A stretch of DNA of 56,749 nt, the filler included, from Porpidia crustulata (taxonomy: Eukaryota): the NCBI GenBank assembly GCA_964255105.1. It is 2 parts of 2 records of this genome, joined end to end, with 100 filler letters (N's around TTAATTAATTAA, not from the genome) between each part and the next. Parts side by side here need not be neighbours in the genome. Positions count along the whole stretch, not along the records: positions 28,673 to 56,749 come from CAXUWE010000030.1; 1 more part is not named here. The stretch is one strand, 5' to 3'. The notes under the pieces are model-generated. The model had not been told where the DNA came from. It ran no database searches and was given only the letters and a program-made list of their open reading frames with translations. Positions within the stretch are counted from its first letter, which is position 1. Every line of letters starts with the position of its first letter. Below, piece by piece: positions 32,959 to 37,507 of the stretch. Both the position numbers and the translations under genes were made by a program.

Positions 32959-34242
32959 TCATGAGTCTACTTCGCCTTCCTCAATGCCATTGTCTAGTTC
33001 TCCGCCGTCCGTAGCAGTAGGCTCAGCCACACTGTCGGAATGGGTAACTACGCCGTTTGTGTGGACAGTATTACCATTGACCTTTTGCCTTTTCCGAGGA
33101 CTGCAACGGGAATGATGACCGTTTGCTACGTCGCCATTGGTCCTCTGGCTAAGACTGTTACCATTTTGACCGACATATCCGTTCGCAGTGACGCTATGCT
33201 CCAAGCTTTCTTTCTCATCCCTTACCCTTTTTGCGCCATTATCTTGCATACCTAGGGGCTCGGACGGTGGGCTACCTCTTTGACTAGGCTTCTGCAATGT
33301 AAAATCGGCATGCTCGTCAATCTTCTCCCGCATAGCCCTTGTCTTCGCGGTCGCCTCGTCGCCGTCTTCCGGTGTGCGCTCGTGTGTTACAGCCTCTCTT
33401 GATGTTTTGAAAGGAATGGTTTCGTACATGATAGCCATGATATTACATGCTCTTCGTATGCTCCTCAATTGCACCCCAATAGTCTCCCACCATGGTCTCC
33501 CATGTACATCGTCCGGTAAACAAAGCCCGCAATGCTTCGCCGCCGCATATAGTGAACTCGCTGCAATAGTCCTACTCGGGAACAGGAGACACAGCATTGT
33601 CATACAACTGTCATTAACAAATGCCCAGGCTGCGTTTCTTAGCCTCTTGTTGTCTTGCTCCCCGAAGAACATCAACAATTCGAACATGGTCTTGTGCGGC
33701 GGTTCCAAGCTCAAGTCGAAGCAAATAGCTTCAAGCAGCAGATCTTCGTTATGCAGAATATTGTCTTTCCACCTCCAATACTCCTTATCCTGCTCGTCCA
33801 CCACCTTGCCCGGATCTTTCTGCGCCACCCTAACACATGCAATCACCAAATCCTTCATTTTCCTACAGTCCTCTTCAACCTTCGTCGCTAAGAACAGACT
33901 TGTCGCGGCCATGGAGTAGTAGTGAAAACCCGGCCTTCCAGGTACATCGACCATGGAATGGCGCATGTAAAACCGGTGTAGGAAGACATTAGCGGTAGCG
34001 AGAGTGATTTGGGGGAGCTTAAGCATGATGCCAACTTGGAGAATAAAGTTGACACCCTTGCTACGGTTTTCGCGCTCTTTTTCAGGCGAGAGGCCGTCGA
34101 GTACAGAAGGCGTACTGAGGAGTTCGGTCTCGGTGAAGAGCCATTGGGATTCAGCGAGGAGGAGAAGTTCGCTTGGGAGTGCTGGAGGTTGGCGCAAAGG
34201 AGACATAGGTGTAGAGTTTTGACTCAAAGATGCGACAGGCAT
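32959..34242 (-). CDS. Transcriptional cyclin (cyclin T/K type, Pch1/Bur2-like)
   Basis: Cyclin box QWLFTETELLSTPS...KGVNFILQVGIMLKLPQITLATANVFLHRFYM...LFLATKVEE. The C-terminus ends in EEGEV. Confidence 0.92.
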   Translation of the reverse strand: MPVASLSQNSTPMSPLRQPPALPSELLLLAESQWLFTETELLSTPSVLDGLSPEKERENRSKGVNFILQVGIMLKLPQITLATANVFLHRFYMRHSMVDVPGRPGFHYYSMAATSLFLATKVEEDCRKMKDLVIACVRVAQKDPGKVVDEQDKEYWRWKDNILHNEDLLLEAICFDLSLEPPHKTMFELLMFFGEQDNKRLRNAAWAFVNDSCMTMLCLLFPSRTIAASSLYAAAKHCGLCLPDDVHGRPWWETIGVQLRSIRRACNIMAIMYETIPFKTSREAVTHERTPEDGDEATAKTRAMREKIDEHADFTLQKPSQRGSPPSEPLGMQDNGAKRVRDEKESLEHSVTANGYVGQNGNSLSQRTNGDVANGHHSRCSPRKRQKVNGNTVHTNGVVTHSDSVAEPTATDGGELDNGIEEGEVDS

Positions 34243-34708
34243 GTCAACAACCTTAAACCGTATGCTGTACTATCAGAGCAAGGTCGAGAGAAGATTAATC
34301 AATGAGACTGCATATTCGGAGTTAATCTGCTAATCGCTTTGAAGATCAGAAAGTACGATAGGTCGAATCCACTAGGGGCTAGACTGTCAAAAGCCAATGG
34401 AGCAGTTCAGTTTACGGTGTCTCGCTTAAGCACTCCAGTAATTTTTGGGGTATCCTAGTGCAGTGAGTGTGTACTACCTATGTAGGTATGGTGTCATTGA
34501 TTTCATACGTTATCATCGTACGGCTTGTAATCAATTGCCATGTAATTCGCTGCAAGTGACTTGGAATTCTGCAATCATATCTTGATCATTGATTTTTACA
34601 AGACAAATCTTGAGATCATTCAGCATTTGTATCTTCAATAATACCTACAGTATTCGTTGACAAATTATCAAAATCCTAACAATTCATTCCATCTAAAATA
34701 AAACAGAG

Positions 34709-35927
34709 ATGTCTCCCCGCAATGATTGTTACTTGTCTCTTTGTCTTGAGCAAGCTGCTTTATCTCCTTTGCACTACCGCCATGGTTGCGTCGTTGTTCG
34801 TGGCGGGAAAGTCATTGGCCAAGGCTACAATGACCACCGATCTCAGTTCGATGGGAGGTCCGAGAGATTAGCATCGTCCAGCGCGTACAACAGCCCCGCT
34901 TTTGCGGCTCTGAAGCAGAGGAAAAATCGAAGCAGTAAGACTGCCATTGAAGAGTGTGAAACCTCGGAAGAGATGGAACAAAAACCAAACACGTATCCTG
35001 CTTATGGCGGCTCGAATGGACACTCCGTCGCGAATGCTCCGCTCTCAATGCATTCGGAGATGATGGCGATTCACTCAGCTCTTTTGTCGTCGAATATTAT
35101 GGCTCCTCGCACGTCTAAACGATCCACTCAGTGGTTACAAAAACCACACTACAAATTATCGTGCCGTGGTAAACGAGACTTACCTTTACAGAACCTTGAA
35201 GCCTACGTCAGCCGAGCAATCGCAGAGGGTACCGTTACACGAGAGAAAGCACATGCTGGCCAGCAATGCGGTGGCGTGTCCCAGGCTCAAGAGTCGCAAT
35301 TTGGAACGTATTCATCTCAACGCGGTCGAGGAGGAGGAGAAGGAGTATCAGAACCGGGAGCACGGGTACGAGAACCACAAGAAGAAGAAAAAGGAACCCA
35401 ATTATAGTGGCAAAGATCGCTGTGGAAGACAATCAATGAGGCCAGAGCTTCAGCTGGAAGCTACAGGTCAACCCCATACCGTTATTGACCGCATGAAGAA
35501 CTCTCGAGTGCGTGGCTCCGATCTCTACGTAGCGAGGCTCAGCTGGATCAAGAAGAAGACTGACACTGTCGCTCATCTCCTTGACCACAAGGCCAAAGAG
35601 GCTACCCCCAAATCCAACAAAACTCCCGCCTCTCTCCACGATGAACTCCGCCAACTCCCCTTGTCGAATATTCAACCTTCTCAGATGCCAAAGACCGCCG
35701 AATGTGCGAAAGCAACGCAGTCGCGCCCCTGTTACCGCTGTATCTACTATATGCATTCTGCCGGGGTCAAACGTGTTTTTTGGACAAATAACCAGGGCGA
35801 ATGGGAGGGCGCCAAGGTAAGGGATCTGGTAGATGCACTGGATGGAAAGAGGGGGCCGGGGAATAGCGAAGAGATTTTTGTAACGAAGCATGAGGTGCTC
35901 CGGCTAAGGGGTATGCTAGGGCTATAA
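34709..35927 (+). CDS. Zinc-dependent CMP/dCMP (cytidine deaminase-fold) deaminase encoded in two overlapping frames
   Basis: ORF1 (34709-35407) carries HGCVVVRGGKVIGQGYN and MHSEMMAI. ORF2 (ending 35927, +1 frame) carries GSDLYVAR and SRPCYRC...GVKRVFWT. How the two are joined is unresolved. Confidence 0.85.
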
Positions 35928-37507
35928 ACGTGTTTTTGGCCTTTGAGAGGTAGGTACAGAGGAAGAAGCTACCTAGGTTCAACGGGGAGGCAAGGATTGA
36001 ACAAGGCGAGGGTTAAATGTGGCGAGGAGAAGCGTAGCGGTGGGCCTGCGAGGTGGGTTTGAGAGGGTGAAGTAGACTCAATCAATATAACATTCTTGCG
36101 TTATCTTATTACAAAACTTCACGTTGTGAAGATGATACTCAACTTTACTACGAGACACATCACATCATGAACAGAAGATTTTGCAGCCCGCTCTTCCTGG
36201 CAAAAGTATCTTATCAAAGTAGAGCCACACGTGTGGCATGGCGTTGACACTAAAACCAGTCGACTACCAACTTGACCTGTTATCAATCAATCCGATCTTT
36301 GGACATAGGAGTTGAGAAGATACAAGCCTTTGATACGATATCTTTAGGCGTTTTGGTGTGAGGCTTCTGGGCGAAATCTATGCAAATTCATGTATCCATA
36401 TAAATCACGAAAGGGCCAAGATTCACACTCCGAAAGCGGGCTGCAAAACGTTCCTACCAAGAAAGACTTCACGCCACTGAAAGCCGAGATGAGGAATATA
36501 GACAGCCGGATTGATGCAAGCAGAGTCTGATGAAGAATCTAATGTTCGAGAATTGCAAACGACAAAGAGAGTAATTGGGAAGAGTGGAAAGGTCCATTAG
36601 ATATGGGGCAAACCACTCGTCAATTTTTGTTGAAGAGCAGTTTGGAATATCACGCGGGGATTAGATTTATTTTCATTCCCGAATCCGGCACCTATCAAAT
36701 CCCCTCCAAAACTTCCGTGGTCAACGTTCCACAATGAATTGTTTTTTAATCTTGCCGTTCTGTGGACTAATTACAATTTGATGGCTTCATATGACAATCC
36801 GCCACCTTCATGGCCTCACCATTCTAGGCGAATTGCTGGCTAATATTCGTCTCATCAAGCTCCGCCGAGTTCCACTGGCCAAACGAGTGCACGCTTTGAG
36901 GGGAAAAATAAAATGGTGCTTTTCCGTCGTCGCTGCCAACGCGTTGGGGATGTTCTAGTAGAAAAGTAAAGGAGTGCCGGAGCCCATGCAAAAAACCGTA
37001 AAATATCACTAGTCCCAGTGGTTCCTAATGCCGAGGAATTTTTCCGCCTAAAATCAAGACAACGCCTGATGCCATTTTTGTGAATGTGTAGTGACTCCCC
37101 AAGATCTCCAAGCCTTAAAGAAAAGTCTATCGGAATATGCGTAGTTGCAAGAGGAAATTTGTGTCGTGACCTTTTGAGAAATAGAAACAAGAATGCGAGG
37201 CCGTTACGCGAAAGGATTGGAAAATAAGGCAGGACGCTGTCGTTCTAGTTCTAGTTGGCGAAGGAATCGAGCCCAGAGCCGAATTAGTACGCTCGGTCCT
37301 GCTGAACCGTTACAATACTAAGCTCCGTATCGTCTAAAAGCTTGATGGTGGTCACCAAGTGTAGGTCGAGTGAGCCGAGTCGTATTAGCGATACCCAAAT
37401 CGTATTAAACCTGCAAGCGGGAGAATTGAACAATTCACACTTCCTAGAGTCGAATTGCTATGGTCGAAATCGACAATCAATTCCAAGTAGATACCTGGGT
37501 TTCAAAT

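Follow-up and report, generated by a model that had tools for sequence, protein, structure and literature searches.

To our knowledge, the eukaryotic chromosomal genes expressed by programmed frameshifting are antizyme, a few yeast genes and, in filamentous fungi, PaYIP3. The budding-yeast +1 events of Ty1, ABP140 (TRM140) and EST3 take place with no stop codon at the site and combine a shift-prone tRNA in the ribosomal P site with a slowly decoded codon in the A site. Conserved chromosomal frameshifting is rare in eukaryotes, and a review partly supports this list of cases (PMC5009743). The antizyme shift is reported to be a conserved eukaryotic +1 event that is needed for the functional protein and acts as a dosage control (PMC1874602). 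In Podospora anserina and further Pezizomycotina, PaYIP3 is described as a Rab-GDI displacement factor that is encoded in two conserved overlapping open reading frames (ORFs) (PMC3777964), whose mRNA is neither spliced nor edited and yields a long trans-frame product as well as a short one (Malagnac et al. 2013, PMC3777964). According to these studies, this arrangement has been kept for hundreds of millions of years (PMC3777964; Atkins et al. 2016, PMC5009743), and the shift is mostly -1; in Capnodiales and Ophiostomatales the configuration is instead +1 and lacks a conserved slippery site (PMC3777964, PMC5009743). Here we describe a gene that may belong with these cases, a putative zinc deaminase of Porpidia crustulata whose two catalytic motifs lie in overlapping reading frames. 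Our study covers a window of 56,749 nucleotides (nt) of assembly GCA_964255105.1, joined from two records, in which the gene occupies positions 34709-35927, in the part from CAXUWE010000030.1.

Both halves of a single domain contribute strands and zinc ligands to the cytidine-deaminase (CDA) fold. A preliminary description of this locus had placed the HxE motif in ORF1 and the PCxxC motif in the +1 frame and had assumed that the two are needed together. Our analysis supports this premise, and the coordinates given for the HSE motif, for the stop of ORF1, for PCYRC and for the stop-free +1 frame from 35064 to 35927 proved correct when they were re-derived. The features of the locus are as follows.

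34709..35407, plus strand: ORF1 in frame 0, from ATG 34709 to TAG 35405-35407, 232 amino acids; it holds the N-terminal half of the CDA-fold deaminase, a linker and then an unconstrained tail up to the TAG.
34772-34831, plus strand: the beta1-beta2 segment HYRHGCVVVRGGKVIGQGYN within ORF1.
35051..35059, plus strand: HSE (CAT TCG GAG), the HxE motif with zinc ligand and catalytic Glu, frame 0.
35064..35927, plus strand: the open +1 frame, stop-free to TAA 35925-35927, 287 codons, with the C-terminal deaminase half.
35138..35222, plus strand: the dual-constrained overlap, read as QKPHYKLSCRGKRDLPLQNLEAYV.. in frame 0 and YKNHTTNYRAVVNETYLYRT.. in +1; the family conserves both readings.
35138..35146, plus strand: candidate shift site 1, CAA AAA CCA, with the A-run CAAAAACC, at the point where +1 opens in the family.
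35153..35161, plus strand: candidate +1 shift site 2, AAA TTA TCG, in which a rare NTA Leu codon comes directly after Lys, of putatively Ty1-like logic.
35222..35279, plus strand: a variable spacer and alternative late switch zone, with no constraint in any frame (ratios ~1) and length changes by multiples of 3.
35280..35327, plus strand: PRLKSRNLERIHLNAV, a motif conserved in +1 only (family form RFKS.VL...HLN.V).
35328..35471, plus strand: a K/E/N/H/Y-rich +1 linker, much shorter than that of relatives; the family intron B is missing here.
35481..35546, plus strand: VIDRMKNSRVRGSDLYVARLSW, the conserved strand beta3 ahead of the PCxxC helix; the matching block has a predicted local distance difference test (pLDDT) value of 95 in the model of relative P0366.
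35721..35741, plus strand: SRPCYRC, the PCxxC zinc ligands in +1 (PCYRC 35727-35741); two family alignments show no variation in P, C, Y, R or C.
35763..35924, plus strand: GVKRVFWTN..WEGAKV..FVTKHEVLRLRGMLGL, beta4, beta5 and the C-terminal helix, pLDDT 86-94 in the P0366 model.

The +1 frame is shut by TGA 35061-35063, a product of the ATGATG for the two Met of E-M-M that come just past HSE, and from there on both frames are open; this stretch, earlier put at about 344 nt, corresponds to 35064-35404 (~340 nt). The +1-frame ATGs noted before at 35253, 35436 and 35493 are present, and others lie at 35685, 35751 and 35913. An assembly indel was not found: in the only sequencing run with this DNA (X1, contigs), a single 6520-nt contig with a depth of ~10 has 0 differences and 0 gaps over 34600-36000, an agreement that amounts to a re-assembly check rather than to independent DNA, as X1 may be the source run. 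Among the runs listed for this stretch there was no RNA run.

The best reading of this anatomy is, in our judgement, that programmed +1 (or -2) ribosomal frameshifting joins the two halves. It is reached by elimination of the alternatives, and we regard it as having an even chance of being correct; of the three options in the preliminary description it is the one that came out of the orthologue comparison best supported, at this same even level. A single-exon gene of a Pezizomycotina family would be read from ATG 34709 in frame 0, giving the first half of the CDA-fold domain with its HxE motif, until the ribosome would shift by +1 (formally also by -2) on the unspliced mRNA somewhere in 35138-35280. 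The most likely place would be the point of +1 opening, either at the A-run in 35138-46 or at the Lys/rare-Leu AAA-UUA-U in 35153-61, and a later shift in the variable spacer 35222-35279 is conceivable. After the shift, the +1 frame would supply the linker motif, the DLYVARL strand, PCYRC and the C-terminal strands, so that a complete zinc-binding enzyme would require the move into +1; ribosomes that do not shift would stop at TAG 35405 and leave a truncated product, half a deaminase fold without PCxxC. PCYRC is invariant in the family but encoded in +1, and its placement on the same chain as HSE hinges on this putative recoding. We infer the translational nature of the event, its place and its efficiency, as well as the dose-limiting of a potentially mutagenic enzyme and the regulatory switch that the preliminary description had suggested.

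The evidence that carries this reading comes from the conservation of the layout. A scan of metagenome contigs recovered 80 orthologues together with their flanking DNA. The comparison took in 54 distinct loci (53 metagenome-contig loci and the window) in which the sequence extends 330 nt or more past HxE, and it is important to note that these loci are phylogenetically related, so that the counts given below are of non-independent events. The same 0/+1 arrangement recurs in the orthologues, which confirms that the two-frame anatomy is real and beyond chance. The +1 offset is kept in the 53 metagenome loci as in the window, as the preliminary description had asked to be verified, and the long overlap is open in both frames in 52 of the 54. 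A continuous ORF was found in none of the 38 loci that carry both motifs, all of which require a frame or intron event; the orthologue with one uninterrupted frame that would have spoken for recent decay was thus not seen. Stop maps show that +1 opens directly past HxE or no more than ~80 nt later in every locus and then stays open for at least 450 nt, that frame 0 is open to between +306 and +690 nt from HxE, and that frame +2 is crowded with stops. Between the K codon of the KP pair at the +1 opening and HxE+330, only L027 has a +1 stop, and only L041 has an early frame-0 stop. Upstream of KP, +1 stops occur nearby in 14 of the 54 loci, and in intact loci every +1 stop lies upstream of the KP codon, the closest being 8 nt away (L057). 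The conserved FKS..HLN motif is in +1 in 53 of 79 HxE-anchored loci and in frame 0 or +2 in none. The distance from the frame-0 YV anchor to the HLN motif takes the values 70, 82, 85, 88, 91, 94, 97, 100, 103, 121 and 124 nt (28 of 30 representatives were anchored; the regular expression missed the diverged L022 and L077), all of the form 3n+1, and indels are therefore confined to multiples of 3. Between HxE and PCxxC the frame offset does vary over the 38 loci and the window, with 12 cases of offset 0, 18 of offset 1 (the window among them) and 9 of offset 2, which on first inspection suggests a single ordinary intron of changing length. The stop maps instead trace the variation to a separate, ordinary intron further downstream, intron B, and the first step is always 0 to +1. 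Two ORFs in a 0/+1 relation whose offset is conserved in orthologues are, as judged from these alignments, what a frameshift gene would be expected to display.

The second line of evidence is the pattern of constraint, measured as the ratio of nonsynonymous to synonymous differences (pN/pS, NG86-type, uncorrected) in each frame:

N-terminal core and HxE helix: frame 0, 0.17-0.19; +1, above 1.6.
35135-35177: frame 0, 0.56; +1, 0.75.
35177-35222: frame 0, 0.64; +1, 1.08.
35222-35270: ~1 in frame 0 and ~1 in +1.
35270-35330: frame 0, 0.99; +1, 0.65.

Close-pair counts agree with these values. On pN/pS, frame 0 is read at least to ~35222 and +1 from ~35270 at the latest. Some 85 nt (35138-35222) show protein-like constraint in both frames, and the frame-0 pS drops from 0.69-0.72 in the core to 0.49-0.53 in 35135-35222, which bears out the suppressed synonymous variation that had been anticipated for the overlap. 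Within 35138-35222, columns conserved solely in frame 0 and columns conserved solely in +1 are interleaved: one +1-only column keeps V/I in 26 of 30 loci while frame 0 varies between G, D, R and S, another keeps +1 Tyr in 29 of 30, and frame-0-only columns keep Arg with a free four-fold site, so that +1 varies between E, G, A and V. Codon use changes in the same place. Of the Lys codons read in frame 0, AAA makes up 88% in the overlap vs 21% in the N-terminal part of these 54 genes; the corresponding shares are 65% vs 8% for CTA plus TTA among Leu codons, 42% vs 8% for CGA among Arg codons and 70% vs 28% for CCG among Pro codons. The conserved frame-0 third-position A is the second base of the +1 codons for Tyr and Asp. 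When frame 0 is shuffled synonymously in 30 loci, ~23.6 +1 stops are predicted from HxE+15 to YV, and 3 are observed, all upstream of KP, a result that is indicative and not a P-value, the loci being related.

Candidate AAA-YUA-Y has the logic of the yeast +1 sites, a shift-prone Lys tRNA followed by a hungry codon. In-frame AAA-NTA lies within 10 codons of KP in 39 of the 54 loci (AAR-NTA in 44), five codons past the A-run, and AAAAACC stands at the +1 opening in 43. A shift at these early positions (35138-35161) would explain why +1 is open and constrained from KP onward, and it would also require the downstream frame 0 to be translated and selected, by way of several shift sites or of two products. 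Placed late (35222-35279), the shift would suit the stronger frame-0 signal up to YV..VC and the predicted P0366 helix, and would leave the upstream +1 constraint unexplained. Each placement accounts for part of the constraint pattern.

Several observations weigh against frameshifting as we have set it out, or against fixing it at one site. No universal shift heptamer exists among the 54 loci, the two candidates reaching the 43 and 39 loci just mentioned. RNAalifold found 0 conserved pairs in 35121-35270 and, in 35253-35382, a single trivial 4-bp hairpin with no covariation, so that no conserved stimulatory RNA structure was detected in these intervals. Frame-0 constraint extends past the early candidate sites (in bin -30, frame 0 has 42 synonymous and 23 nonsynonymous differences, and +1 has 4 and 61), and in the AlphaFold model of P0366 the frame-0-encoded helix '..YVERVC..' has a pLDDT of 64-81; taken together, the persistent constraint and this modelled helix would fit a late shift better than an early one. 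Locus L027 keeps the frame-0 peptide yet has two +1 stops in the overlap. Finally, phylogenetic relatedness makes the locus counts less than independent support.

The alternative that survives best, although we hold it unlikely, is that an intron or exitron of 3n+1 nt, be it short, weak or confined to one lineage, is spliced out, its retention leaving frame 0 open. The genuine introns of this family are indeed short (44-57 nt), the GT..AG candidates in the linker of the window comprise one of 43 nt and one of 46 nt (35086-35131, with donor GTCGTC, a branch resembling CTAAAC and acceptor CAG), and many NCBI models, some from pipelines that may be informed by RNA, put an intron in the overlap. 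Intron B provides the control for what a real intron looks like here. It lies just upstream of the ..LLLP.G.TG..DR.K..RL.GADLYVARLGW exon and is recognized by strict criteria in 12 of 23 loci, at 44-57 nt, with GTAAGT/GTGAGT donors and CTAAC/CTGAC branch sites. In the switch zone, strict canonical signals occur in 3 of 30 loci and at non-homologous positions. The HxE-KP linker measures only 72-93 nt, and a 3n+1 GT..AG pair is missing there in 20 of 30 loci, so the 46-nt candidate of the window is not a family feature. An ordinary spliceosomal intron at a homologous frame-switch position does not, on these signals, appear to exist. The offset that is always +1, the spacer indels that are only multiples of 3 and the absence of stops in both frames through the zone in 52 of 54 loci also argue against splicing.

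The gene models, moreover, contradict one another, even inside one species. Public models bridge the two frames right after HSEMMAI, past KP, past RLRR, past YV..VC, past SQVQ or deep in the frame-0 tail, and two Parastagonospora nodorum annotations (P0284 and P0334) disagree on the bridge point; such a scatter would be expected of predictors that are forced to invent introns. Because the frames are bridged at inconsistent places, the inspected public gene models of the family are probably wrong in the linker. A conserved donor, CAG/GTTCAAG (slash at the putative junction), was also considered and rejected: the place of its GT is taken by GC in the window and by AT in several lineages, and the subsequent codons show +1 coding signatures.

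Two separate products constitute a further alternative, one that we rate as decidedly improbable. Here ORF1 would be translated by itself and the +1 ORF would be expressed separately by internal AUG or non-AUG initiation, by reinitiation or from an internal transcript, and the halves would assemble, or just one of them would be functional. The +1 ATGs of the window at 35253, 35436 and 35493 make it conceivable, frame-0 constraint reaching well beyond HxE would fit an independently useful ORF1 product, and L027 keeps its frame-0 peptide with the +1 frame closed and the C-terminal half inverted. Against it, the closest relatives (L001-L006) have no +1 ATG until the last few codons, which rules out separate AUG initiation as a general mechanism; the assembly of two polypeptides from an internal ATG, one of the options entertained before, is accordingly an unlikely mechanism for the family. 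In addition, +1 constraint starts ~140 nt upstream of the first +1 ATG of the window, and the division would run through a domain whose strands and zinc ligands are drawn from both halves.

Correction of the frame in the transcript by a route other than the spliceosome, such as transcriptional slippage on the A-run 35139-35143, editing or unconventional excision, seems very unlikely to us. AAAAACC does stand precisely at the +1 opening in the 43 loci counted above, but the run comprises just 5 A (6-7 in a few loci) and is missing in 11 of 54, and known transcriptional slippage sites need longer runs. RNAalifold over 35121-35382 found no conserved stem-loops of the kind that could mark an unconventional intron. 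A recent pseudogene or an assembly error is in effect refuted: a frameshift usually betrays decay, and among the relatives L041 has truly decayed, but 53 further distinct loci, assembled separately, have the same offset, purifying selection acts on both halves, and the re-assembled contig is identical. The intron 35366-35498 (GTACGA..AAG) put forward in the preliminary description, although of suitable phase and length (133 nt, 3n+1), is refuted, since it would remove a K/E-rich stretch and the family-wide +1 residues P.L.L..TG and V.DR.K just ahead of DLYVARL, its GTACGA donor is merely the G-Y-E codons of the conserved +1 reading, AAG is a poor acceptor, and no orthologue has an intron at that place.

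Returning to frameshifting, comparison with the described systems shows both shared and distinct characteristics. The logic of Ty1-type sites is common to the candidate AAA-(C/U)UA-Y of the deaminase; the Ty1-type heptamers CUU-AGG-C or CUU-AGU-U differ from this putative site, present in 39 of 54 loci, and the deaminase overlap is far longer. In antizyme the shift is reported to occur at the codon preceding the ORF1 stop; in the deaminase family the frame-0 stop lies at least 200 nt downstream at a variable position (+306 to +690 from HxE), and an ORF1 stop inside the shift site is absent. The nearest known case would be PaYIP3, which likewise lies on the chromosomes of filamentous ascomycetes and consists of two overlapping ORFs that are both conserved. 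Compared with PaYIP3, the deaminase shift would always be +1, with no RNA structure found, would fall inside one catalytic domain, so that the unshifted product is without half the fold, and would be accompanied by ~85 nt apparently constrained in both frames. In the open-access literature we found no report of frameshifting in a fungal deaminase, and nothing on SNOG_08042 of Parastagonospora nodorum. A scan of 35000-35500 for bacterial-type promoters and terminators returned nothing, which is not relevant to a fungus.

As a broader proposal, which we advance tentatively and consider somewhat more apt to fail than to hold, the whole Pezizomycotina deaminase family (Dothideo-, Leotio-, Lecanoro- and Sordariomycetes) may be expressed only through a +1 shift inside the catalytic domain, with ~30 dual-coded codons and clusters of rare codons (AAA-CUA-C, CGA-CUA-CGA) serving as the signal. 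Most ribosomes would then produce an inactive N-terminal fragment and the shifted fraction the active, potentially mutagenic enzyme, while annotations would hide the event by means of invented small introns. If true, this would be a new case across several fungal classes, marked by a long overlap under constraint in both frames and by a site that has neither a stop codon nor an RNA structure, and it would point to a new model of +1 programming; it would also exemplify recoding that throttles a nucleic-acid or nucleotide deaminase.

With respect to the family assignment, HSE conforms to the H(A/C/S)xE pattern that the CDA-fold superfamily has on helix 2, and all 30 aligned loci keep both its H and its E. 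ORF1 matches the Pfam family dCMP_cyt_deam_1 (PF00383) with an E-value of 4.6e-4 and 20.5 bits, under the 25-bit cut-off, the +1 ORF alone has no Pfam match, and four full-length gene models of relatives score 27.4-31.5 bits against the same cut-off. As a query, ORF1 retrieves 417 proteins at E<=1e-3 among 703 candidates; the 12 matches inspected are all ORF1-like, and none contains PCxxC. The region 35406-35924 retrieves 265 library proteins at E<=1e-3, and among those inspected are full-length gene models as well as ORFs of the +1 frame. The full-length model P0131, used as a query, recovered named proteins of Dothideomycetes, Leotiomycetes, Lecanoromycetes and Sordariomycetes, all of them called 'hypothetical' or 'CMP/dCMP-type deaminase domain-containing'.

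Structural comparison gives weak evidence on the five-stranded beta-sheet fold of the deaminases. The AlphaFold models of two relatives have a mean pLDDT of 57.9 and 62.7; their cores are confident and their linkers stay below 50. In the model of P0264, in which the linker is read in +1, pLDDT is below 50 across the entire linker, so that it is uninformative on whether this reading is structured. Foldseek yields a weak best E-value of 0.12 (human dCMP deaminase) in a list dominated by dCMP, cytidine, blasticidin-S, RibD and TadA deaminases. The best VIA result is a Z of 3.9 to blasticidin-S and cytidine deaminases, for the C-terminal half only and tied with CBS domains, which is likewise weak, and a phmmer search of the PDB sequences matched none of the solved structures significantly. 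The family has HxE and PCxxC in common with the CDA-superfamily deaminases (dCMP, cytidine/blasticidin-S, RibD and TadA), and it differs from them by an insert of ~150-250 residues, of low confidence in the models, between the HxE helix and beta3 and by a second insert ahead of PCxxC.

Intron B is missing in the window, in L001-L006, in L032/L036 and in L051/52/54. Owing to its absence, the +1 ORF of the window is uninterrupted and the HxE-to-PC distance is only 673 nt, vs 865-1201 nt in relatives. The gene of the window is the shortest version of the family seen, with ~200-500 nt of K/E/N/H/Y-rich linker lost along with intron B.

Some members of the family depart from the common form. In a group with ~48% identity (L009, L008, L010, L011, L065 and L071), +1 is continuous from KP through DLYVARLG and the zinc motif is interrupted, SRPC being followed by a stop and YRCISYMH lying in another frame; this PC/YRC split looks like a lineage-specific intron. 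The decayed L041, a paralogue or orthologue, carries several frame-0 stops, a stop in ..DELRC* (asterisk) and PYYRC instead of PCYRC. On its 3695-nt contig, L027 retains the frame-0 peptide EKPCMKLPRGDKKKERLRRDVLKTYV with ordinary codons (CTT, CTG, AGA), besides its two +1 stops in the overlap, and its C-terminal deaminase half is inverted downstream; it is either a misassembly or a rearranged copy that keeps the frame-0 product only. In two NCBI models of 790 and 840 amino acids (P0217 and P0304), the deaminase is fused to an N-terminal lactonase / YbhE-like domain (PF10282 in P0304), and these may be merged neighbouring genes rather than true fusions. Upstream of the deaminase gene in the window, a divergent open frame of 436 amino acids on the minus strand (32959-34269) matches Cyclin_N with an E-value of 2.1e-13, and its C-terminal domain is cyclin-T2-like at a sub-threshold score. 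Between this cyclin-like neighbour and the start of the deaminase lies an AT-rich spacer of ~440 nt with a GC content of 0.32-0.44.

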